Shown here one piece after another: positions 1-63,778 of a stretch of DNA of 64,000 nucleotides. Location of the stretch: contig CAVWIH010000020.1 of NCBI GenBank assembly GCA_963755025.1, positions 32,001 to 96,000 on the forward strand. The letters run 5' to 3'. Position numbers and translations under genes: made by a program. How positions within the stretch are numbered: position 1 is the stretch's first letter; every line of letters starts with the position of its first letter. This DNA comes from an uncultured Actinomycetes bacterium. Lineage in GTDB: Bacteria; Actinomycetota; Thermoleophilia; UBA2241. Below the pieces are notes generated by a model. It made no database searches. It worked only from the letters and a program-made list of their open reading frames with translations, and had not been told where the DNA came from.

Positions 1-2
1 AG

Positions 3-632
3 CGCTGGGGCATCTCGGCGACCGACAACTACGGGCTCACCGAGGTGATCGGCCCGGGCATCGCCGGCGAGTGCGAGCACAAGGACGGCATGCACATCTC
101 CGAAGACCATTTTCTGGTCGAGGTGCTCGACCCGGCAAGCGACGAGCCGGTGCCCGACGGCGAGGTCGGCGAGCTCGTGGTCACCTCGCTCACCAAGGAG
201 TGCTCGCCGGTGCTGCGCTACCGCACCGGCGACCTGTCGCGCGTCACGCACGAGCGCTGTGCCTGCGGCCGCACGACGGCCCGCATGGGCAAGATCATCG
301 GCCGCACCGACGACATGTTCATCGTGAGCGGCGTCAACGTCTTCCCCTCGACCGTCGAGTCGGTGCTCTTCCGCATCGAGGGCCTCGAACCGCACTACGA
401 GATCGTGCTCGACCGCTTGGGCGAGTTGGACACGTTCACGGTGCAGGTCGAGGTCACCGAGGAGCTCTTCAACGGCTGGATGGACGACCTCGTGGCCTTC
501 GAACGTCAGGTCACCGAGACGCTACGCTCGGCGTTGCTCGTGCGCCCCAAGGTCAAGCTCGTCGAGGCGGGCTCGCTCACGCGCTTCGAGGGCAAGGCGC
601 GGCGCGTGATCGACAACCGGCCGCTCGGGTAA
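3..632 (+). CDS. paaK: Phenylacetate-CoA ligase family protein, C-terminal part (5' truncated by window edge)
   Basis: The frame is open from base 3 (RWGISATDNYGLTEVIGPG). Motifs RYRTGD, GRTDDMFIVSGVNVFPS and C-terminal RFEGKARRVID are typical of PaaK. Confidence 0.85.
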   Translation, partial: RWGISATDNYGLTEVIGPGIAGECEHKDGMHISEDHFLVEVLDPASDEPVPDGEVGELVVTSLTKECSPVLRYRTGDLSRVTHERCACGRTTARMGKIIGRTDDMFIVSGVNVFPSTVESVLFRIEGLEPHYEIVLDRLGELDTFTVQVEVTEELFNGWMDDLVAFERQVTETLRSALLVRPKVKLVEAGSLTRFEGKARRVIDNRPLG

Positions 633-761
633 GGGGCGCCGGCCGCTCGGGTAAGAGGCGCCGCTCGGCTGAAGGCGCCGCGCGGCGCGCCTGCGCCGCC
701 CCGCGGTGGCGCTCCGTCGTCGGGCTCAGGCGCCCGCCGACCGGCTCGCCCCTGCACGCAG

Positions 762-803
762 AACCAGACCGGGGCCCTGGTCTCCCCGGGCCCCGGTCTG
801 GTT
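762..803 (+). terminator. Long GC-rich hairpin between convergent genes
   Basis: AACCAGACCGGGGCCC ... GGGCCCCGGTCTGGTT inverted repeat downstream of paaK. Confidence 0.6.
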
Positions 804-920
804 GTTCGGAGGCTTCCTCTCCCCGCGATTTGGTCTCCAAGTGCTGTATCGGTCCCGGGCCGCGGCGATGAGATAGAACGAGTGTCTACGGTGGCCATCG
901 CAGGGCCGCCGCGGCAGTGC

Positions 921-2967
921 TTACGCGGTGACGCGCACCAGTTCGAGGTGGCTGGTCGAGCCGTCTAAGACCTTGCGCACGCCGTCGTCGTGGATGCTCT
1001 CGATGCCGCGGGCACGGGCCGCCGCGCGCATCTCGCCGACGGTGGCGCCCACGGCGATCATCTCGCGCAGTTCGTCGTCGATGGTGAGCACCTCGTAGAG
1101 CCCGAGACGGCCGTAGTAACCGGTGCCGAAGCACTTAGGGCAGCCGACCGGCGTGTAGATGTTCATGCGGGCCCCGGGCGCCTCGCCCAGGCCGAGCTCG
1201 ACCCAGCGCGCGGCGGTGAGCACGTCGGGCTTGCGGCAGTGGCGGCACAGGCGGCGCACAAGGCGCTGCGAGACGATGCAGCGGTAGGCGGCGGCCACCA
1301 GGTAGGCCGGCAGGCCCATCTCGATGAGGCGGTTGATCGACGAGATGGCGTCGCCGGTGTGCAGCGTGGTGAACACGAGGTGGCCGGTGATGGCGGCGTC
1401 GGCGGCCATTTTGGCGGTCTCCAGGTCGCGCACTTCGCCGACCATGATGACGTCGGGGTCGGCGCGCACCAGCGAGCGCAGCGCCTGGGCGAAGGTAAGG
1501 CCGATGATGGGCTTGACCTCGGTCTGCACCACGCCGTGCAGCTTGCGCTCGATGGGGTCTTCGACCGTGTAGATCTTGCGCTCCTTGGACTTGATGAGCT
1601 CGAGCGTGGTGTAGAGCGTGGTCGACTTGCCGCTGCCGGTGGGCCCGCCGATGACGATGCCGCCATCGGGCCGGCGGATGGCTTCTTCGAAGCGCGTCAG
1701 GCTGGTGCCGGCGAAGCCCAGCGAGAGCAGCGTGGGCGGCAGCGGCGATGACTTCGAGCACGCGGATGGTCATGTTCTCGCCGTACAGGCTCGGGATAGA
1801 GGCCAGGCGCATGTCGACGACGTCGCCGTCGGCGGTCTCGAAGCTGGTGCGCCCGTCCTGGGGCAGGCGGCGTTCGGCGATGTCCATGCCGGCCATGATC
1901 TTCATGCGGCTGAGCACGCCGGCCTGGAGATCGCTCGAGTACTCGCGCAGGTCGTGCAGGACGCCATCGACCCGGCAGCGGATCTGCAGCATGTCTTCGC
2001 GCGGCTCGACGTGGATGTCGGAGGCCTTCATGCCGATGGCGTCGGTCAGCACCGAGTCGACGATCTCGATGATCGAGGCGTCGAGGGCGCCGGGCGGCTC
2101 GGGGCGGTTGTCGCCCTCGGCGCTCTCGAGCTCTTTGAGCTTGCCGCGCTTGCTCGTGAAGATGGAGAGGGCTTCGTCGAAGGCGCTCTCGGCGCAGATG
2201 GCGGGCACGACGTTGCGCTTGGTGCGCAGCCGGACTTCGTCGATGACGACGACGTCGAGCGGGTTGGTCATGGCGATGACGAGGCCGCCGTTGTCGTCTA
2301 GGCGAAGCGGCAGCAGACGGTGGCGCACGATGAAGTCGCGCGGCAGCAGGCCGACCGCCGCCGGGTTAGGTGTGACGGCGCGCAGGTCGACGACGGACAG
2401 GTGCATCTGGCCGGCCAGGGCGTGGATGAGGTCGTCTTCGGAGACCAGACCCGCCGCGACCAGGACCTCGCCGAGGCGGCCGCCCGCCTGCTGCTGGCGG
2501 GCCAGCGCGTCGTCGATCTGGGCCTGGCTGACGATGCCGCTCTCGACCAGCATGGCGCCCAGCTTGAGGCGGCCGGCGCTGCGCCGGTGGCGGCGGTCGA
2601 TGGCGACCTGCAGCTTGTCGCGCAGGTCTTCGACCCGGAACGGCTTGGTGACGTACTCGGCGATGCCCAGGCGGTGCGCCTGCTCGAAGGTCTCGAAGTC
2701 GTTGGTCGCCGAGAGCACGATCACCGGCGCGGCGCGCAGGGCCGGCGTGGAGTTCATGAGCTTGAGCACGTCGAAGCCCTCGATGCCCTGCAGGTCGATG
2801 TCGAGCAGCAGGGCGTCGGGCGGCGCGTCGCGCAGCGCACGCAGCGCCGCCTGACCGCCCTCGAAGGTCGCCACGTCGAAGGCGCCCTCGAAGAAGGCGG
2901 CGAGCTGCTCGCGCAGGTCGATGTCGTCGTCGACGACGACGAGGCGCTTTTTGGACGCTTTGCTCAC
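921..2967 (-). CDS. REC + MshEN + PilB/GspE-type secretion ATPase (one frameshift near 1750)
   Basis: N-terminal receiver domain (VVVDDD, LLLDIDL, SA, TKPF) and two MshEN-like motifs (KLGAMLVESGIV..Q; RLGEVLVAAGLV..Q). ATPase motifs are ASDIHVEP, DIAERRLPQDG, Walker A GPTGSGKST, EDPIE, RADPDVIMVGEVRD, TGHLVFTTLH and a tetracysteine motif. GTG start with GGAG RBS. The two halves are in different frames. Confidence 0.85.
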
Positions 2968-42190: not shown

Positions 42191-42841
42191 GTGCATTGCC
42201 CTTTCTGTGGTGACGAAGACAGCCGTGTGGTCGATTCGCGCGATTCCGAGTCGGGCGACACCATCCGCCGGCGCCGCGAATGCGGCCACTGCGGACGGCG
42301 CTACACCACCTACGAGCGCGTCGAAGAAGCGCCGTTGCTGGTCGTCAAGCGCAGCGGCGCCGAAGAGGTCTTCGCGCGCGCCAAGCTGCTGAACGGCTTG
42401 CTGCGCGCCTGCGAGAAGCGCCACATCTCGCTCGAGCGCATCGAGCGCATCTCCGACGAGATCGAAGGCGAACTGCGCCGCGAGTCGGTGCAGCAGGTCA
42501 CCTCGGTCGAGATCGGCGAGCGCGCGCTGCGCTACCTGCGCGACCTCGACCGCGTGGCCTACATACGCTTCGCGTCCGTCTATCGCCAGTTCGACGACAT
42601 CGACGAGTTCCAAAGCGAGCTCGCCCGCCTCGACGAGCCGGCCGCAAACGATGGACCGGGCGAGCGAACGGCCGACGCGACGCGCGAGCACGCGGCCGAC
42701 GCGCCGCGCGACCGGGCGACCGACAAGCCACACGACCGGGCGGTCGACGGGCCGCCCCCCACCGCAACGTCAGACGACGCGCCGGTCGACCAGCCGGCGC
42801 TGACCACATCGAACAGAGCAGGGGGCATGACTCATGACTGA
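42191..42841 (+). CDS. nrdR: Transcriptional repressor NrdR with repetitive C-terminal extension
   Basis: HCPFCG..SRVVDSR..IRRRREC..C.RRYTTYE, ATP-cone, [13 protein letters not shown]. Confidence 0.95.
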
Positions 42842-45083
42842 GACGGGGCGCGACGTGATAGAGCTGTCGGCCAACGCACTCAAGGTGCTGCAACGTCGCT
42901 ACCTCAAGAAGGGCGAGAACGGCGAGCTGCAGGAGACGCCCGAGCAGATGTTCCGTCGCGTCGCCCGGGCGATCGCCCAGGCCGAGCGGCTGCACAACCC
43001 GAGCGCTCCGGTCGAGCAGGTCGAAGAGACCTTCTACGAGCTCATGTCGAGCCTCGAGTTCATGCCCAACAGCCCCACGCTCATGAACGCCGGTCGCGAG
43101 CTCGGTCAGCTCTCGGCCTGTTTCGTGCTGCCCGTCGGCGACTCCATGGACTCCATCTTCGAGGCCATCAAGAACACCGCCCTCATTCACAAGAGCGGCG
43201 GCGGCACCGGCTTTTCGTTCTCGCGCGTGCGCCCCAAGAACGACGTCGTGCTGTCGACCGCCGGGGTCTCGTCGGGCCCGCTGTCGTTCATGAACGTCTT
43301 CGACGCCGCCACCGAGACCATCAAGCAGGGCGGCACGCGGCGCGGCGCCAACATGGGCATCATGCGCGTCGACCACCCCGACATCCTCGAGTTCATCAAC
43401 GCCAAGCACAACGACGACTGCCTCAACAACTTCAACATCTCGGTGGCCGTCACCGACGCCTTCATGCACGCGGTCGAAGCCGACGAAGAGTACGCCCTGC
43501 TCAACCCGCGCTCCGGCGAGACGGTGCAGATGCTCAAGGCGCGCAAGGTCTTCAACCTCATGGTCACGCTAGCCTGGAAGAACGGCGACCCCGGCGTCGT
43601 GTTCATCGACCGCATCAACGAGCACAACCCCACGCCCCAGCTGGGTCCCATCGAGAGCACCAACCCCTGCGGCGAGCAGCCCCTGCTGCCCTACGAGTCG
43701 TGCAACCTGGGTTCGGTCAACCTCGCCCGCGTGTGCGACGACGGCCACCTCGACTACGGTCGCCTGGGGCGCATCGTCAAGACCGCCGTGCGCTTCTTAG
43801 ACAACGTCATCGACGTCAACAACTACCCGCTGCCGCAGATCGCCGAAATGAGCCGCGGCAACCGCAAGATCGGCCTGGGCGTCATGGGCTTCGCCGACAT
43901 GCTCTTCAGGCTCGGCATCCCCTACGACTCCGACGAAGCCGTGCACCTGGCCGGCGAGCTCATGGAGTTCGTGCACGCCCAGGCGCGAGAGGCCTCTATC
44001 GAGCTCGCCGAAGAACGCGGCGTGTTCCCCAACTTCGCGGGCTCCATCTACGACGTCGAAGGCGGCCCCCGGCTGCGCAACGCCACCGTCACCACCATCG
44101 CCCCGACCGGCACCATCTCGATCATCGCCGGCTGCTCGAGCGGCATCGAGCCCCTGTTCGCCCTGGGCTACGTGCGCCGCAAGGTATTAGACGACGACGA
44201 GATGGTCGAGCTCTACCCGTACTTCGAAGAGGTCGCCCGGCGCGAGGGCTTCTACTCCGACGAGCTCATCAAGCGCGTCGCCGACCAGGGTTCGGCGCGC
44301 CACGTCGACGACGTGCCGGCCGTGTGGCGCAAGGTCTTCGCCACCGCCCACGACGTCACGCCCGAGTGGCACATCAAGCTGCAGGCCGCCTTTCAGGACG
44401 CCACCGACAACGCCGTCTCAAAGACGGTCAACTTTCCCAACGACGCCACCGCCGACGACGTCGACAAGGTCTACCGCCTCGCCTTTCGCTCGGGCTGCAA
44501 AGGCGTCACCATCTACCGCGACGGCAGCCGCGACGAGCAGGTGCTGAACGTGGGGGCCGCCTACAAGCAGGGCGCTCCGCGCGACCCGGCCGCCGGCGGC
44601 ATCGCCACCACGCGGCCCTCGCGGCCGCGCCTGCTGTCGGGCGAGACCGAGCGCATGGACACCGGCTGCGGCAAGCTGTTCGTCATCATGAACGACGACG
44701 AGCACGGCCCGCGCGAGGTCTTCGCCAACATGGGCAAGGCCGGTGGCTGCGCCTCGTCGAACACCGAAGCGCTCGGCCGGCTGATCTCGCTGGCCTTAAA
44801 GAAGGGCGCGTCGCCGAGCGAGGTCGTCGACCAGCTCAAGGGCATCCGCTGTCACGTGCCCTACGGCATGGGGCCCAACGCCACGCTGTCGTGCGCCGAC
44901 GCCATCGGCAAGGCCATCGAACGGCGCTACATCACGGGCGCCGCCGCGCCGGCCGCCACCATCGAGCCGCAGCTCGCGCTCGTCGAGGTCGCCCAGGGCG
45001 CCTGCCCCGACTGCGGCGGCTCCATCGAACACGAAGGCGGCTGCGTGGTGTGCCGCACCTGCGGCTACTCCAAGTGCGGCTGA
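42834..45083 (+). CDS. nrdJ: Class II (adenosylcobalamin-dependent) ribonucleotide reductase
   Basis: [31 protein letters not shown]; C-terminal TSCPD-like domain and zinc ribbon; no nrdB nearby. Confidence 0.9.
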
Positions 45084-56093: not shown

Positions 56094-57473
56094 CTAGCCC
56101 ACTCGCTGCGTCGGCGAGAACGTCTGCACGATCTGCTCGAGCATCGGTTCTATGGCGTTCCAGTCGCGGACGAGCGACCCGGCGAAGATCGCGAAGTCGC
56201 GGCCCCCGTTTTCGAGCGCACTCATGGCGAAGCGGTCGATCCCCGAGACGTAGGTCGTGCGCCGTGCCGGGAGTCCGTTGACCGTGACCCGTTCGCTTTC
56301 GTGCTCCAGCTCGCAGTCTATCCACGCCGCATGCATCACGCCGGGCACGATGGCGGCCAGGCTGGTCAGCCGCCCCGATTCGTCGGTGGTCGTGGAAGAC
56401 CGCAGCTTCGCGACGTACACGGCGACCATGGGGGCCGTGGCGTCGGCGACGCTGCCGATGGCCGCAGCGTCCCTGTCGCCGAACAGGACCGACCAAACGC
56501 CGTGTCCATGCCCCTCGCCGAGGACCACGGAGTCGGCGGGCAGCGTCAGGCTGAAGCTGTGGCGCGGGTCGCGATACGTGACGAACCCGGGGTCCGCCGC
56601 CGGCGCGATGACCCGGTACGTTCCCGACTTCTGCTCGAGGCCGGGATGCCGCAAGGACTGGTGCGCCCGCCGGTCGGCAAGCCAGGCCACCTTCGCGTCG
56701 ATCAGCGCGTGCCAGACGCGCTCGTCGGCCGAGTGGCGCAGGGCGCCCATGACGAACGAGCGAGAGCGCGGCTGGTCGAGGAGGGCAAGGAGAGCGTCGA
56801 CCCCCGGCTGGCCGCACGCGGACAGGAGCTTCGCGAGCCAGCGACACAGGTCGGGCGATCGCGACTTCCGGAGCATCTCGCCGACCTGCTGTGCGTGGCC
56901 GGGGGTGGGATCGCGTGCGAGCAGCTCGGCCTGGGCCCTTACCGCCAGCTCGTTCTTATCGCGCTCCGTGCGGAGGCCCCGGCCGGCCTGGCGTCGTCGC
57001 GAGCCTTGCCGTTCGTCGTCAAACGTCTCCCTGCGGGCCTCGCCTGGCCGCCGCTCGGTCGGCGGCGGCTCGCCCCGCGCCGCCAGCCGCGCCTTGCGCC
57101 GCGCGATGAGCTGGGCATGGTGAACCTCGCGCCACAGCGGCTGCTGTTGCTCGAACGCCTGCACGGCTTGGGTAGCGCGCGGTTCGTCGAGCGAGGCCAG
57201 CGCCTGTTTGGCAAAGGGTCGCGTGTTGATGTCCTCAAGGAGCTGGACGAGGGCCTCGAACCCCGGGTCGCCGCACCGGGCGAGCGCCGCGGCTGCGGCC
57301 TCGTTGACGGCGCCGGAGTAGCGGTCGTGAAAGTAGGCGACGAGCGCGCTCGCCGCCTCGGTGTCGCCGAGGTCGCCGAGAGCCTGCGCCGCCGCGATCC
57401 TGTCGCTCTCGTGTTTACTGCACAGCAGCGTCGTGCGGAGCGTCGGGAACTCTCTGGCCATCTCCCTGCCCAT
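56094..57473 (-). CDS. HEAT/PBS-lyase repeat protein with PsbP-like C-terminal region
   Basis: RIAAAQALGDLGD..., AAAALARCGDPGFEAL repeats; start uncertain. Confidence 0.55.
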   Translation of the reverse strand: MGREMAREFPTLRTTLLCSKHESDRIAAAQALGDLGDTEAASALVAYFHDRYSGAVNEAAAAALARCGDPGFEALVQLLEDINTRPFAKQALASLDEPRATQAVQAFEQQQPLWREVHHAQLIARRKARLAARGEPPPTERRPGEARRETFDDERQGSRRRQAGRGLRTERDKNELAVRAQAELLARDPTPGHAQQVGEMLRKSRSPDLCRWLAKLLSACGQPGVDALLALLDQPRSRSFVMGALRHSADERVWHALIDAKVAWLADRRAHQSLRHPGLEQKSGTYRVIAPAADPGFVTYRDPRHSFSLTLPADSVVLGEGHGHGVWSVLFGDRDAAAIGSVADATAPMVAVYVAKLRSSTTTDESGRLTSLAAIVPGVMHAAWIDCELEHESERVTVNGLPARRTTYVSGIDRFAMSALENGGRDFAIFAGSLVRDWNAIEPMLEQIVQTFSPTQRVG

Positions 57474-58152
57474 GACGTTCGTACGGTTCCCGGTGGAGTC
57501 TACATCGGCCCCCGTCCTGCCGCGCCGGCTCGTCGTGCTGTGCCGACTCCTCTTGCTCAGCCGTCTCGATGAGCGCGCGCACCAGACAGCCGATCATGAA
57601 GGCGAGGCACTCGAACTCGAGGAACTCGATGGCCGTCCTGTCCAGCATGATCTGCACGCCGACCGGAAAGTCGTCGTCGGCCTCTTCGAAGGCAAGCTTG
57701 ACCGGGATCTTCGGAAGCACCGCGAATTTCCACAGATGAGAGCCCGCGCGCGACGCCTCTTCGACGCCGCCCAGCCTCGTCGCTGCCGCGCTGAACGCGC
57801 CGTAGCCATCGGCGAAGTATCGCTCGAGCGGATCGCTCATCAGCCGGCTCTGCGCCCCGAGCATGCCGACCATCCGGGGCAGGGCCTCGACTAAGACGTA
57901 GGAACCTTCTGGGTCGCCGCGTCCTGTGGAGAACAGGTAGTAGAGCAGGACGCTCAACGTGTTGACGTTGGTCGGTCGGCCGTCGTCGCACTGCACGCCG
58001 TCGCGAGTGATGCGATACGGCCTGCCCAGAAAGGTCAGGCGAACGCTGCCCTCGACGTGATCAAGGCCCAGGCGGCCGGCGGCCTCGCGAAAGTCGCACT
58101 CGGGCAGCCGGGCGACCAGCCCGCGGTAGATCGAGTCGTAGCCTCCGTGCAC
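57415..58152 (-). CDS. DUF3786-like protein
   Basis: AAGRLG, FLGRPYRI, VLPKIPVKL.F..ADDDFP, LEFECL. Confidence 0.7.
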   Translation of the reverse strand: MHGGYDSIYRGLVARLPECDFREAAGRLGLDHVEGSVRLTFLGRPYRITRDGVQCDDGRPTNVNTLSVLLYYLFSTGRGDPEGSYVLVEALPRMVGMLGAQSRLMSDPLERYFADGYGAFSAAATRLGGVEEASRAGSHLWKFAVLPKIPVKLAFEEADDDFPVGVQIMLDRTAIEFLEFECLAFMIGCLVRALIETAEQEESAQHDEPARQDGGRCRLHREPYERHGQGDGQRVPDAPHDAAVQ

Positions 58153-58361
58153 AGCGCGTCCCTCCCGGTCCGGCGCTCCTGTGCTCGAGGAGTGGAGCGC
58201 CGCCCAACGTCCGGGCGTCGAACCGCGCCCGCTGGCTGTTGAGCATAGCGCAGAGGGCGGCGCGGGCGCTGCTGCGCAGTGCGCTGCGAGGCGGCGGCGC
58301 GGTCAAGGGCCGCCGCCGGGCTGCCGGTGAGCGAGGCGACCACCCCGATCGGAGCCCTTGC

Positions 58362-59533
58362 GTGAAACGCCTGCTCAAAAGCCGGCTCAGCGCCCTTGCC
58401 CTGCCGTGCGCGGCCTTGCTCTGCGCGGTCCTGCTCTGCGCGGTCCTGGTGGTCGGCTGCGGGTCGAGCGGTCGCCGGGTCGATCCCTACGGCGCGCTGC
58501 AGACTCCGGGGCCGCCGCCGGCGGCGCGCAGCGGCGCCCAGGTGTGGGCGGTCGGCATGCCGGTGCTCGTGGTCGCGAGCGCCGACGGCGGCGCGACGTG
58601 GCGCACCGCTGGGGCGTCGACGCACGGCGATCCCTTCACGCAGATCCTCTACGCTGTGGCCTTCGCCGACTCGCGACATGGCTGGGCGGTGGGCAAGGCC
58701 GGACTCGTCGTGGCGAGCTCCGACGGCGGCGCGCACTGGGCCGTGCGCCACCGCGACGCGGCCGACGTCTGCCTGCTGGGCGTGGTAGCGATCAGCGGGC
58801 GCAGCGCTCAGGCGGTGGGCTACGCGCGCGACGGGGCGCTGGGCATCGTCGAGTCCACGAGCGATGCCGGCAAGACGTGGCAGACGCGCTACGCCGGTCG
58901 CGACGCGCTGCGCGCCGTCGCCTTTGCCGACGCTCGTCACGGCTGGGCGGTGGGCAGCACCGGCATCCTGGCGACGACCGACGGCGGCGCCCACTGGCGC
59001 CTGCAGCGCGCGGTCTCGGGCATGTACCGCTTCAGCGCCGTGACCTTCGCCGACGCCCGCCACGGCTGGGCTGTGGGCGGCGCCGGCGCCGGGCCCTTGA
59101 AGCCGGGGTTCATCATGACGACGACCGACGGCGGCGCCCACTGGTCGACGTTCATGCCGGGCACGCCCGATCGCCTGAACGGCGTGTCGTTCGTCGGCGC
59201 GCGGCGCGGCTGGGTGGTCGGGCAACCGCGGCGTGGTCTACCACACGACCGATGGCGGCCGTTCGTGGGTGCTCGGGCACGTCGACGTCGACTGGGAAGC
59301 TCGGCGCCGTCACGTTCAGCGACGCGCGGCACGGCTGGGCGATCGTGCACCCTCACTGGGACCTGGAGGCGGCCTCGTCGGGCGACTCCGCACGAGGCTG
59401 GGGGCTGCAGCGTCAGCTCGACCTGCTCGCCACGAGCGACGGCGGCGCCACCTGGACGGCGGTCAAGACGGTCGACGGCCTGGCGTCTCCGGTGATCCTG
59501 ACCGCGGTCACGTGCCGCGACCTCTCCAGGTAG
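58362..59533 (+). CDS. YCF48/BNR-repeat beta-propeller lipoprotein (frameshifts near 59222 and 59295)
   Basis: Lipobox VVGC; repeated (S/T)xDGGxxW and FADARHGWAVG. Confidence 0.75.
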
Positions 59534-61448: not shown

Positions 61449-63053
61449 TCAGTCGGGCGGCAGCAGCCTCACCGTCATGGTGAGGCTCGTGCCGCGGCGC
61501 TCGCGCACGACGGCCACCATGCGGTAGATCGCCAGGCAGCCCGCGAGGATGGCGACCCAGAGCAGGATCGCCTTGGGCTGGTGGGCGATGCTCGTGCCCG
61601 AGTTGGCGTCGGTCAGGTTGAGGTACGCGGCCACGAGCACGGGCGGTATGGTCACGATGCCGAGCCACGTGAGCGAGCTCAGGCCGGCAAAGCGGCGCGC
61701 CGGCGGCAGGGTGAAGTTGCGCCGGCCGGCCACCCGCGGCAGCACGATCGCCACCAGAGCGACGCAGAGCCATTCCGTGAACATGACGATCATGCCCGAG
61801 AGCAGCGAGAGGTGGGCGTAGATCATGAGCGCCGTGAACACGGTGGCCACGGCGAAGGTCAGCAGCAGGGCGCGGTAGGGGGTGTGCCAGCGGGGGTGCA
61901 CCTCGGCGCACCAGCGCGGCAGGAGACCGTCGAGCGACCAGGCGAACAGGCAGCGCGAGACGCACATGGCGGTCGGTCCCACCCAGGCGAAGCCCCACAC
62001 CGTGAAGGCGGCCATGAGGGCGATGGCCAGCACGCCGTGGTGCAGCGCGAGGGCGACCAGCTCGGCGAAGGCCGGCGTAGAACCCAAGCCGAGCTTGGCG
62101 GCCGGCGTGAAGGCCAGGTTGGCGAAGAACGTCATGCCGAACAGGTGGCTCAGGGCGAAGGTCACGCCCAGCAGCCAGGCGAGGGTCCAGGTCGTGGCGC
62201 CGAGCACGCCGATCGACTGCGTGCGGGCCGGACGGCGCACCTCGCCGGCGATGAACACCGAGAAATAGCAGCCCAAAAAGACGATCCACGGCCAGATCGC
62301 GGCGTGCAGCGTGGCCGACCAGGAAAAGCCGGGCGCCTTGCCGGCGGCGAGCGCCGCGACCGGCCCGGCGTGGATACGCGCCAGCTGGCCGTCGACGTGG
62401 GCCAGGGCGCCGGCCCGCGAGAACAGCAGGGCGGCGATCACGACGGCGGCCAGGGCGGCCGTGCCCAGCACGAAGGCCGCGCCCTGGGCGCGAAAGTAGA
62501 GCTTGCCGCCGCGGATCATGAGCGCCGCGTAGGCGGCGAGCACGGCCAGCGAGACGAGGAAGGTGCCGGTCGGGGTGCTCAGCCAGTTGGCCAGATGGTT
62601 CGCCCCGGTGCTGCCGGTGTAGGCGGCCGCGACGCGCGCCAGCGGGGTGAGGCCGTACTCCACCGTGTAAAGGCCGCCGAGCCCCACGAACAGGCAGAAG
62701 TAGGCCATCGCCGCGGCGTTCACGGCGAAGCCCAGGGCGGGGCTCAGCGTGCGCGAGATCGAGACGTAGTCGCCGCCCGAGCGCGGAAACGCGACGGCGA
62801 GGCGCACGTAGAGCAGGTTGAGCGGCAGGATGCCGACGAAGGCCAGCAGCACGGCCAGGTAGAGGTTGGCGCCGGGGTAGAGGCCGGGGCCGAGCAGCGT
62901 GAGCCACACCAGGCCTATGCCGATGTTGGCGTTCATCACGTTGAAGCCAAACACCTGCCACGAGGTGATCTCGCGCACCAGGCCGCTGGCCTGCCGCGCG
63001 AACGGGCTCACCGCCGAGCGCTGCGCCGCGGATTGCTGTGAGAGAGCTTGCAT
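61449..63053 (-). CDS. APC-superfamily permease
   Basis: FARQASGLVREI, FPRSGGDYV.ISR, IAGEVR, SRCLFAWSLDGLLP, HPRWHTP; about 12 TM helices; GGAGG RBS. Confidence 0.85.
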   Translation of the reverse strand: MQALSQQSAAQRSAVSPFARQASGLVREITSWQVFGFNVMNANIGIGLVWLTLLGPGLYPGANLYLAVLLAFVGILPLNLLYVRLAVAFPRSGGDYVSISRTLSPALGFAVNAAAMAYFCLFVGLGGLYTVEYGLTPLARVAAAYTGSTGANHLANWLSTPTGTFLVSLAVLAAYAALMIRGGKLYFRAQGAAFVLGTAALAAVVIAALLFSRAGALAHVDGQLARIHAGPVAALAAGKAPGFSWSATLHAAIWPWIVFLGCYFSVFIAGEVRRPARTQSIGVLGATTWTLAWLLGVTFALSHLFGMTFFANLAFTPAAKLGLGSTPAFAELVALALHHGVLAIALMAAFTVWGFAWVGPTAMCVSRCLFAWSLDGLLPRWCAEVHPRWHTPYRALLLTFAVATVFTALMIYAHLSLLSGMIVMFTEWLCVALVAIVLPRVAGRRNFTLPPARRFAGLSSLTWLGIVTIPPVLVAAYLNLTDANSGTSIAHQPKAILLWVAILAGCLAIYRMVAVVRERRGTSLTMTVRLLPPD

Positions 63054-63192
63054 GTGCCGACCTCCGGATCCTCGCCAGAAAACAACAAATCCCGGGCCGC
63101 CTCTCTGCGAGACTGCCCGGGACCCTGACGCTGCTGGATCCGTGCACGAGCAGTGCCCGCCCCGTACCACGGGGGCGGCGACGGCACCGCTT

Positions 63193-63352
63193 GGAGACAG
63201 GTCTTCTGGCTTGCCGGATCGTCCTTGCGCCGCACCTTCCCACCGGCGTAAAGCCGGCAGTGGCGTGTTCAGCGGCGGTCGTCCCCGGTCACAGCGGCGG
63301 GTCCGCGACGGCTTTGCACCGTCTTCCCTCGAGGCCCCTTACGGGCATCTCC
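63193..63352 (-). ncRNA. Cobalamin riboswitch
   Basis: AGGGAA-GACGGTGCAAAGCCGTC, CCCGCCGCTGT, GCCACTG, GGGAAGG, B12 box AGCCAGAAGACCTG, closing GGAGA/TCTCC stem. Confidence 0.9.
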
Positions 63353-63580
63353 GTCGTTAAGGGTAACGGGGTGCGCGGGGGAGCGTCAACCCAGGGCGGG
63401 CCGGCGTCGGTCCCATCAAACGCATAGGACAGCGCCGGCCGCAGTGCTCGACGAAGTCCTGGCGCTGCTCGACGCGTGTCTCTACTGAGCGCCGCCGGAC
63501 GCGTCACCTGACCCGCTCCAGCGCGGAAGAATGCCGGCACGGGAACGGCGCGGAGCGGCGCCCGCTCCGCTCAGGCCCCG

Positions 63581-63778
63581 TCAGGCGTCGTAGGCGACCA
63601 CCCTGATGAGGCCGATGGTCTCGCCGGTGTCGCCCGCGGTGGTGGAGTCGCTCACCGAGTAGACGGTCGTCGCCTTCTCGTCGGCGAGGAACTTGCCTAC
63701 CGTCTCGTCGAGCTCGGTGAGCTCGCGGATGGTCGCGAAGATCTTGATGGGGGTGGCGAAGGTCTTCACTTTGATCAT
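63581..63778 (-). CDS. Small conserved hypothetical protein (65 aa)
   Basis: MIKVKTF...ELTELDETV..F...SVSD...GETIGLIRVVAY; AAAGGA RBS; strong GC3 bias. Confidence 0.75.
   Translation of the reverse strand: MIKVKTFATPIKIFATIRELTELDETVGKFLADEKATTVYSVSDSTTAGDTGETIGLIRVVAYDA

Follow-up and report, generated by a model that had tools for sequence, protein, structure and literature searches.

A cobalamin riboswitch paired with an APC-superfamily permease in uncultured Thermoleophilia: a possible importer of cobamide building blocks

What does an APC-superfamily permease carry when its gene stands behind a cobalamin riboswitch? The locus that raises this question lies in a 64,000-nt stretch of DNA (the window) from an uncultured member of the Thermoleophilia, for which the initial annotation had claimed a full-length cobalamin riboswitch upstream of, and on the same strand as, a 534-residue APC permease. 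Both features are upheld. Infernal, the check that the annotation had called for, returned RF00174 as the sole Rfam match in the whole window (cmscan), untruncated, at 97.8 bits (gathering score 31.5, E 3.6e-23) and spanning model positions 1–189 of 189; the permease scores above the cut-offs of two Pfam families. The aptamer lies 126 nt from the permease ATG, counted from the end of the Rfam match, close enough to the approximately 140 nt first estimated. The interval originally given (61449–63352) slightly clips the 5′ end of the aptamer (Table 1). Based on its sequence, the leader aptamer is predicted to be a class-I cobalamin riboswitch (AdoCbl-type, full-length) and to bind corrinoids. 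The B12-dependent ribonucleotide reductase NrdJ, also claimed for the window, is present and scores 1200 bits against NF006417 (‘vitamin B12-dependent ribonucleotide reductase’, cut-off 961).

Table 1 Coordinates of the permease, its leader elements and NrdJ in the window.
Feature	Position	Strand	Basis
534-residue APC-superfamily permease (P0002)	61449..63053	-	ATG 63053, stop ends 61449
Cobalamin riboswitch aptamer, full length with P6 extension	63179..63366	-	RF00174
B12 box GCCAGAAGACCTG	63210..63198	-	sequence
Putative promoter: TTGACG (63389..63384), 18-nt spacer, TACCCT (63365..63360)	63360..63389	-	sequence, aligned leaders
P13-like hairpin GCCGCCCCC-GUGGUA-CGGGGCGGGC, directly 3′ of aptamer	63155..63179	-	paired in 24 leaders
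E1 element CGGAUCC, 5′ strand of candidate antiterminator	63136..63142	-	pairs with terminator 5′ arm
Intrinsic-terminator-like hairpin (63125..63087), then U-rich tract UUUGUUGUUUUCU	63077..63125	-	folding, covariation
Shine-Dalgarno GGAGG and ATG (63053..63051)	63051..63065	-	GGAGG 8 nt upstream of ATG
NrdJ	42834..45083	+	NF006417

The permease matches the Pfam families AA_permease_2 (PF13520; 52.6 bits, E 4.5e-14, cut-off 27) and AA_permease (PF00324; 43 bits, cut-off 24.6) over residues 33–500, and its reading frame has a GC3 of 0.91. The best Foldseek matches to its AlphaFold2 model (pLDDT 90.0, pTM 0.88) are LAT1 (7dsk), BasC (9h76), AdiC (3ob6, 5j4i), the GkApcT/CAT homologue (5oqt) and ApcT (3gi8), all with a probability of 1.00 and with query-normalised TM-scores of 0.55–0.66 against these solved APC transporters. 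The fold is shared with them, as are the motifs PRSGGDY after TM2 and GGE in TM6, whereas the sequence differs, with only 13–19% identity; searched with phmmer, the PDB sequences gave no match to the permease at E 0.01. As modelled, the permease is a divergent 12-helix secondary transporter of the LeuT-type APC fold. Assignment to an APC subfamily by Foldseek was dropped, all APC subfamilies being matched about equally, and the characterised APC subfamilies of NCBIfam all score far below their cut-offs (BcaP, 34.3 against 690; TIGR00909, 29.5 against 556.8; LAT TIGR00911, 21.4 against 701.8). Only seven residue positions discriminate the riboswitch-linked clade from its relatives, including E427 in a transmembrane helix, and no substrate could be deduced from them.

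The initial annotation had made the pairing depend on orthologues of the permease, and these carry the riboswitch. Orthologues are found in all 11 same-genus genomes (79–97% identity) and in one other genus (59%), and an RF00174 aptamer is located upstream at 11 of these 12 loci, the twelfth (L009) being cut inside the gene by a contig end. The same arrangement is present at 13/14 evaluable metagenome loci with a permease identity of at least 56%; the exception, L134 (56% identity), shows none in the upstream 2.5 kb. None of the 27 scanned homologues of 40% identity or less has the riboswitch. The pairing is therefore conserved in a narrow clade that comprises two uncultured genera of the Thermoleophilia. 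The permease is a monocistronic unit: no other gene follows the switch consistently, since the gene content beyond the permease varies from one orthologous locus to the next, often with convergent genes. Operon partners were dropped as a clue to the substrate because of this variation.

The leader was analysed in an alignment of 24 permease leaders. The putative promoter is proposed solely from conservation, the orthologous leaders carrying TTGACG or TTGCGC, a spacer and then TAGGAT or TACCAT; a scan for the strict sigma-70 consensus lists no promoter here. The P13-like hairpin is paired in 98.8% of cells and has a single pair in which both partners change; it is weak when taken alone (−17.2 kcal/mol, z −1.6). 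The terminator-like hairpin occurs in 24/24 leaders, is paired in 97.5% of cells and has three pairs in which both partners change. None of 200 shuffles matched its folding energy of −28.4 kcal/mol (z −4.5), and the covariation observed in the two hairpins together was reached by 0/500 shuffles. A stable GC-rich hairpin, a U-tract and compensatory changes, the marks of an intrinsic terminator, are all found here; a simple consensus terminator scan omits the hairpin because of an internal loop in its stem. The 6-bp core of E1 is 99.3% paired yet nearly invariant and the antiterminator hairpin is thermodynamically ordinary (z +0.6). A paralogous riboswitch (locus L099, genome G015) has a three-way compensatory change in the E1 platform (GGAUUC/GAAUCC/GGGAUU). 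In thermodynamic folds the terminator forms with the aptamer either locked or free, and in folds of the nascent transcript the partner of E2 is either E1 or the aptamer.

To our knowledge, the cis-acting cobalamin riboswitches characterised so far are all OFF switches, and by this precedent the permease riboswitch would probably repress as well. The opposite polarity, in which B12 permits read-through or translation and the permease imports a methylated amine or similar compound for corrinoid-dependent methyltransferases, is improbable. It draws on the complementarity between the 3′ strand of P1 (UCUCC) and the Shine-Dalgarno sequence GGAGG, which RNAalifold pairs (alignment columns 14–18 with 166–171) and which is changed on both sides in 3/24 leaders. 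This helix is short and weak, with only 5 bp, and pyrimidine runs complementary to a Shine-Dalgarno sequence are common. When the full leader is folded to minimum energy, E1 is trapped by the aptamer strand GAUCCG, which would be hidden once the aptamer has folded, again as read-through in the presence of B12 would predict. Against this stand the cobU riboswitches of the same genomes, which share the GUGG loop motif (L13) of the P13-like hairpin and carry the Shine-Dalgarno sequence in the 3′ strand of P13, the classical OFF design. The metabolism of the hosts would suit such a switch, with 10–23 genes for B12-binding domains (PF02310) in each genome of the genus, at least 17 MttB-like tblastn matches in the source genome and PylS in 5/5 genus genomes. 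The permease has no corrinoid protein gene beside it, however, and its contig (C20) has no PF02310 match.

The hosts are uncultured soil Thermoleophilia with heavy corrinoid use, mainly by salvage. Their salvage gene set consists of the riboswitch-cobUTSC-btuFC operon, CbiZ and CbiB, of which CbiB is present in all five genus genomes and is adjoined by CbiZ in the source genome. The other riboswitch units of the genus are cobU-cobT-cobS-cobC-(unknown)-fur-btuF-btuC and cobO, and CobT was found in 10/11 other genus genomes. In genus g5, riboswitches precede cobUTS and a second transporter, an ABC system resembling NMT1/SsuA; the expression platform of the latter riboswitch is the one found in the permease leader. 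BluB does not score above its cut-off in any of the five genus genomes or 24 family genomes, and ThiC/BzaF-type PF01964 proteins were found in none of the five genus genomes. MetE was found in 0/24 family genomes at E 1e-20 or better, the genus having weak partial matches only. Apart from NrdJ, no ribonucleotide reductase of class I or II was found in the source genome, which is 84% complete.

Initially, cobamide, cobalt, a lower ligand, a precursor or methionine had been proposed as the substrate. Two groups are retained, one of lower ligands and linker precursors, the other of methionine and methyl donors; corrinoids and cobalt are not likely. Import of cobalamin or cobinamide would fit the source assembly, in which the permease leader is the only RF00174 match, and riboswitch-run transporters most often carry the ligand itself. 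The single match is an assembly effect, however, since contig C5 is broken at its start, where BtuF and BtuC are located, and a riboswitch-cobUTSC operon precedes them in complete relatives. The permease contains neither a Peripla_BP_2 nor a FecCD domain (Pfam) and is thus not a corrinoid transporter of the BtuFCD type; its LeuT/APC fold is compact and the relatives with solved structures transport amino acids and amines. We know of no precedent for a 1.3-kDa substrate in a transporter of this fold. Because riboswitch-linked BtuF/BtuC are present in the genus (L111), and in part in the source genome, corrinoid import is considered very unlikely. Cobalt import for corrin synthesis is more remote still and barely credible. 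Cobalt transporters are standard targets of B12 riboswitches in the main text of Sun et al. 2013 (PMC3766115) and the source genome has a cbi cluster, but four of the five genus genomes have the permease and no CbiC match, and the one cbi cluster has its own NicO-type transporter, without a riboswitch. The permease matches amino acid permease families and no metal transporter family.

Our preferred reading, held tentatively, is that the permease is repressed by B12 and imports a small nitrogen-containing building block of cobamides. It would be the third arm of the cobamide-salvage regulon, beside the riboswitch-cobU-cobT-cobS-cobC-...-btuF-btuC unit and cobO. When B12 is sufficient, the ligand-bound aptamer would let the terminator form and the permease would not be made; when B12 is short, the permease would be made and would bring in a building block for finishing or remodelling corrinoids. 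This block would be one that the cell cannot make, either a lower-ligand base of the benzimidazole type or a linker precursor of the aminopropanol type. We infer both the direction of transport and the class of substrate from the regulatory and genomic context. The riboswitch is real and linked to the permease, and the other riboswitch units of the genus are salvage genes. Outside parts appear to be needed, as the genomes lack BluB and ThiC/BzaF-type proteins, possess CobT and CbiB and rarely have CbiC. The strong covarying terminator hairpin is also in keeping with repression. The published B12 regulons contain biosynthesis genes, transporters for B12 and its precursors, cobalt transporters and isozymes, according to the main text of Sun et al. 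2013 (PMC3766115), and these classes suggest that a transporter in a B12 regulon most often serves the cofactor or a precursor.

Several observations count against import of a building block. No member of the APC family is known to us to carry benzimidazoles or aminopropanol. CobD-like genes in several genus genomes (185–237 bits, below the 290-bit cut-off) imply that the supply of linker may be endogenous, and other genera of the family are also without BluB and MetE and have CobT, yet lack the permease, so that the phyletic pattern is not specific to a need for building blocks. The terminator folds whether or not the aptamer is locked, and complementarity between the P1 3′ strand and the Shine-Dalgarno sequence is typical of ON switches, both of which weaken the case for the OFF step. 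Locus L134, which has no riboswitch, also weighs against this reading.

The wider family of the permease adds a further argument. In the tree, the riboswitch clade is nested inside an uncharacterised APC family that is otherwise tied to a divergent metallophosphoesterase: a gene for this protein of approximately 320 residues adjoins the permease at 56/71 non-riboswitch loci among L022–L098 and at none of the riboswitch-clade loci. The wider family is also linked to hydrolases of nitrogen compounds. Comparison of gene neighbourhoods by tblastn, with genes from five loci, revealed that the operons of the nearest relatives contain arginase-family, M24 (creatinase/ectoine-hydrolase-like), cyclase and carbamoyltransferase genes. 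These neighbours point to amino acid-like or guanidino substrates, chemically nearer to methionine and betaines than to benzimidazole, and argue against a cobamide building block. The closest (sister) paralogue, in genome G011, lies within a corrinoid-protein cluster, between MttB and MtmB methyltransferase genes and beside a BetI-type regulator, which is in line with uptake of either methylated amines or a methyl donor. Corrinoid-protein, MttB and MtmB neighbours are confined to G011 and contig C36 of the source genome, and a corrinoid-methyltransferase context was therefore dropped as a trait of the family.

A close rival, only slightly less likely than the building-block reading, is that the permease bypasses B12 by importing methionine, or else a methyl donor such as S-methylmethionine or glycine betaine that a stand-alone homocysteine S-methyltransferase could use. 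Its expression would be limited to conditions in which B12 no longer suffices for corrinoid-dependent methylation of homocysteine, making it a transporter counterpart of metE control. Amino acids and betaine-like compounds are natural substrates of APC transporters, and Pfam places the permease in amino acid permease families. The lack of MetE across the family is consistent with a bypass, as is the only PF02574 domain in each genome, which belongs to a stand-alone homocysteine S-methyltransferase of about 309 residues; its best NCBIfam matches are the YitJ N-terminal half and betaine-homocysteine S-methyltransferase (238.7 bits, cut-off 338). PMC3228920 describes stand-alone homologues paired with APC transporters, in the manner of mmuPM, in gammaproteobacteria. 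Like the mmuP-mmuM and MHT2-APC pairs described there, the hosts combine an APC permease with a sole, stand-alone homocysteine methyltransferase domain of about 300 residues; unlike in those pairs, the likeness is one of genome content, the genes not being adjacent (the methyltransferase is on contig C2, the permease on C20) and regulation being by B12 rather than MetJ or SAM. Methionine is useful at any level of B12, which would make B12 an odd sole signal, and cmscan detected no SAM-type element in the window. With NrdJ as the only class I/II reductase found in the 84%-complete source genome, methionine alone would leave a need for B12. The four categories of cobalamin-regulated genes in the main text of Sun et al. 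2013 (PMC3766115) do not include amino-acid uptake, nor does that text name a class of amino-acid or methyl-donor substitute transporters. Finally, the whole family (f1) has the stand-alone methyltransferase and lacks MetE, whereas the riboswitch-controlled permease occurs in two genera only. When 41 relatives were tabulated, the genera of this family were alike for MetE, BluB, CobT and PF02574, with or without the permease; phyletic complementarity was set aside as an arbiter, as neither import of a building block nor a bypass gains from it.

Like btuB/btuFCD, cbiMNQO and other cobalt transporters, the permease has an RF00174 aptamer in its leader and belongs to a host that salvages corrinoids. 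It differs from known uptake genes under B12 riboswitches (ABC, ECF, TonB-dependent, NiCoT) in being a single-component secondary carrier of the APC fold. The alpha-ribazole transporter gene cblT is also controlled by a cobalamin riboswitch. Control of metE and of class I/III nrd genes offers a possible parallel in its logic, a substitute being made only when B12 is short, in hosts here without MetE and dependent on NrdJ; in those cases the regulated gene encodes an enzyme and not a transporter. Transporters under B12 riboswitches are as such already known, and the pairing of this riboswitch with an APC permease was not found in print. The literature covered included the main text of Sun et al. 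2013 (PMC3766115); the 26 families of B12 and precursor transporters listed in its supplementary tables lay outside this coverage, and an APC family may already figure among them.

No amino-acid or methyl-donor importer within a B12 regulon is described in the literature searched. For neither the benzimidazole lower ligands nor the aminopropanol linker are we aware of an established dedicated importer. Either main reading, import of a building block or of methionine or a methyl donor, would if true extend the B12 regulon to a further class of transporter. Should the switch instead be an ON switch, a class of riboswitch known solely for repression would here act in a feed-forward manner, with uptake of methylated amines licensed by the cofactor in bacteria that demethylate them by corrinoid- and pyrrolysine-dependent routes. 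With one gene, one well-scoring switch and clade-wide conservation, the permease is a clean candidate for tests. These soil Thermoleophilia have a pyrrolysine system and dozens of corrinoid enzymes, and MetE, BluB and ThiC were not found in them; the function of the permease would help to explain how they cope with a shortage of the cofactor.

The cobalamin riboswitch model RF00174 was the sole Rfam match in a scan of the entire window, covering the full model without truncation (97.8 bits, gathering score 31.5 bits; E 3.6e-23). The initial annotation, which had placed such a riboswitch upstream of an APC permease on the same strand, is confirmed on this point, as is its B12-dependent ribonucleotide reductase NrdJ, which scores 1200 bits on NF006417 and is the only PF02867 match in G000, the genome containing the window (3.37 Mb, 39 contigs, 84% complete). 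The G000 assembly contains one RF00174 match, which is an assembly effect, since contig C5 is broken at its start, where BtuF and BtuC are located, and complete relatives carry two to three. The named relatives are uncultured Thermoleophilia and 'Actinomycetes' MAGs.

The assignment of the 534-residue protein to the APC permeases also holds, with Pfam matches to AA_permease_2 (52.6 bits) and AA_permease (43 bits) that are weak though above the cut-offs. All NCBIfam equivalogs score far under their cut-offs. An AlphaFold2 model built with 84 homologues (pLDDT 90.0, pTM 0.88) was matched by Foldseek to LAT1, BasC, AdiC, a CAT homologue and ApcT with a probability of 1.00 and 13–19% identity, and phmmer found no match among PDB sequences at E 0.01. 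These comparisons identify the permease as an APC-fold carrier outside all characterised subfamilies.

Orthologues of the permease are present in all 11 other genomes of the genus (79–97% identity) and one more, at 59% identity, was found in another genus of the same family; 28 other relatives contain only homologues of at most 36% identity. The riboswitch is conserved upstream in 11 of the 12 orthologue genome loci, the twelfth (L009) starting within the gene at a contig end, and in 13 of 15 metagenome loci with at least 56% identity, although the two counts are not independent because several of the metagenome loci nearly duplicate genome loci. Of the two exceptions, L131 has no upstream DNA on its contig, and L134 (56% identity) has neither riboswitch nor B12 box in 2.5 kb upstream. 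In L134, positions 1..2500 are unrelated lower-GC DNA containing an N and reaching the start codon, which may reflect a rearrangement or a chimeric assembly. None of the 27 loci scanned around more distant homologues (at most 40% identity; L014-L020, L028-L042, L135-L139) has RF00174, and in the maximum-likelihood tree the 13 riboswitch-linked proteins form one clade (SH-aLRT 100). The riboswitch-permease unit is a single gene; the genes downstream vary among the orthologous loci, are often convergent and include an amidase-like gene and a small membrane protein at variable distance. Just upstream of the riboswitch promoter, and in the same place in many orthologous loci, is a 65-residue ORF (start MIKVK.F.TPIKIFAT) with no family match.

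Features of the window and of related loci (.. and - denote coordinate ranges)
Feature	Location	Strand	Remarks
Permease	ATG 63053 to stop 61449	-	534 residues; next gene on riboswitch strand; GGAGG 8 nt upstream
RF00174 riboswitch	63366..63179	-	
Putative promoter motif	upstream of aptamer		common to orthologues: TTGACG/TTGCGC, spacer, then TAGGAT/TACCAT/TACCCT
P13-like hairpin	63179..63155	-	3' of aptamer; loop GUGGUA
E1 element CGGAUCC	63142..63136	-	candidate antiterminator strand
Terminator hairpin	63125..63087	-	strong; then UUUGUUGUUUUCU, then Shine-Dalgarno (SD)
65-aa ORF	63581..63778	-	from ATG
NrdJ	42834..45083	+	
DUF3786 protein	57415..58152	-	E 5.9e-35; within window region 57415..59533
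BNR/Ycf48-like gene	58239..59495	+	
Putative pyrrolysine-use locus	L116 16348..17766 (G011:C3)	+	
Putative pyrrolysine-use locus	G000:C10:75537-76259		
APC-metallophosphoesterase module	L117 11157..14737 (G000:C36)		
APC-metallophosphoesterase module	L116 11103..13865		
De novo cobalamin cluster	G000:C13:12001-31000 (L119)		CbiG-type; without riboswitch
ABC transporter riboswitch, second genus	L114 155..3389; L099 (G015:C122)		
cobO riboswitch, another family genus	L208 (G024:C1:737338-740528)		

A strict consensus scan called no promoter upstream of the aptamer. The terminator (-28.4 kcal/mol, z -4.5) recurs in every one of the 24 distinct leaders; 97.5% of its cells are paired, three of its pairs show changes on both sides, and the covariation of P13 and terminator was attained in none of 500 shuffles. 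E1 is able to base-pair with the terminator's 5' arm, a pairing that is invariant within the permease leaders. A paralogous riboswitch of G015, ahead of an NMT1/SsuA-like ABC transporter in the second genus with the riboswitch-permease unit, shares this platform and shows a three-way compensatory change (GGAUUC/GAAUCC/GGGAUU), which supports the antiterminator/terminator pair as real. The cobU riboswitches share the GUGG loop with the permease riboswitch but, unlike its leader, carry the SD within the 3' strand of the hairpin, the classical OFF design. In folds both with and without the aptamer the terminator is the minimum-energy structure. By precedent, we infer that the permease riboswitch would be an OFF switch. 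The P1 3' strand contains UCUCC, the complement of the SD, which is an ON-like trait. That the riboswitch is an ON switch and the permease feeds a corrinoid-dependent pathway is quite improbable.

A second riboswitch in the genus heads cobU-cobT-cobS-cobC-(unknown)-fur-btuF-btuC, and G010 has a third before cobO. A corrinoid transporter, as in the cobamide import originally proposed for the permease, is unlikely because this Btu system is already present and the fold is compact. CbiB was found in five of five genus genomes, adjoining CbiZ in G000, and CbiC in G000 alone, the other four being 92–100% complete. The likewise proposed cobalt transport is unlikely, as the permease is kept where CbiC was not detected. 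The G000 cbi cluster carries its own NicO transporter, together with CobD-like, CobQ, CbiC, methylase, CbiG, CbiA and CysG-like genes; a CobD-like match in G004 equals that of G000 in strength.

The precursor and methionine proposals of the initial annotation fare better. Among 41 relatives BluB exceeded its cut-off in only one, outside the family, and no ThiC/BzaF-type, ThiC-family radical SAM protein (PF01964) was found in G000, G010, G011, G006 or G015 (81–100% complete). Regulation by B12 agrees best with an importer of a building block required solely for synthesis or repair of the cofactor, and the lack of BluB and ThiC-type genes beside CobT, CbiZ and CbiB would create such a requirement; we tentatively regard the permease as such an importer. 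That ThiC is missing also suggests reliance on thiamine pyrimidine from outside. Family chemistry and the missing MetE (none in 24 family genomes) fit about equally well with import of methionine or a methyl donor as a B12 bypass, which is a somewhat doubtful reading. Throughout the family, the sole homocysteine-methyltransferase domain forms a stand-alone protein (about 309 residues); its nearest models, YitJ N-terminal and betaine-homocysteine methyltransferase, both score it below their cut-offs. The phyletic patterns of MetE, BluB, CobT and PF02574, the CobD search and clade-specific residues did not discriminate among the substrate readings. Each genome encodes 10–23 B12-binding domains, and MttB-like matches in G000 number at least 17.

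The genus appears to use pyrrolysine. A gene for the monomethylamine methyltransferase MtmB is split by an in-frame TAG (Pfam MtmB positions 3–195 and 216–449) and followed by a corrinoid protein gene, and the PylS C-terminal domain (TIGR02367) scores 278–300 bits (cut-off 178) in five of five genus genomes, including G000. A literature search on pyrrolysine and Thermoleophilia yielded a single paper, whose title points to serpentine-soil geochemistry and microbiology.

Other riboswitch targets were observed in relatives. In the second genus, the paralogous riboswitch with its P13/antiterminator/terminator platform of the permease type controls an ABC transporter with an NMT1/THI5- or SsuA/TauA-like binding protein, a further B12-regulated transporter. 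At L208 a riboswitch heads cobO and, after it, a gene resembling stand-alone homocysteine S-methyltransferases, which B12 repression would not usually target. In other family genera, riboswitches precede secreted proteins of about 380–390 residues (L202 in G019, L211 in G023), which match no NCBIfam family and are possible surface corrinoid-binding proteins. Elsewhere in the window, beside a DUF3786 protein gene, the GC3 phase of the BNR/Ycf48-like gene shifts near 59100-59500, which suggests a frameshift or overlapping gene.

In the wider APC family a divergent metallophosphoesterase of about 320 residues (motifs DxHG, GD, GNDD and GHxHE; weak Pfam matches) adjoins the APC gene in 56 of 71 non-riboswitch loci among L022-L098; with metagenome loci included, the figure is 81 of 136. 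A protein of about 270 residues without a Pfam or NCBIfam family occurs at 53 of the 136, and some loci also have neighbouring arginase-family, M24, cyclase, SDR or carbamoyltransferase genes. Hosts of this widespread, uncharacterised module include Thermoleophilia, Chloroflexota and Thermomicrobia. In the clade nearest the riboswitch clade, the operon reads Lrp - APC - M24 hydrolase - 162-residue protein - metallophosphoesterase, and the G011 sister paralogue is flanked by MttB and MtmB clusters.

In the parts of the full-text literature on B12 regulation that were covered, including PMC4342826, PMC10878165, PMC3766115, PMC9600381 and PMC3228920, no cobalamin riboswitch is linked to an APC or amino-acid permease; an earlier regulon table may list one. 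The permease is an addition to the known class of transporters controlled by B12 riboswitches. The neighbours of the wider family, and the loss of these module partners from the riboswitch clade, point to recruitment into the B12 regulon of a carrier for small, amino-acid-like nitrogenous compounds.
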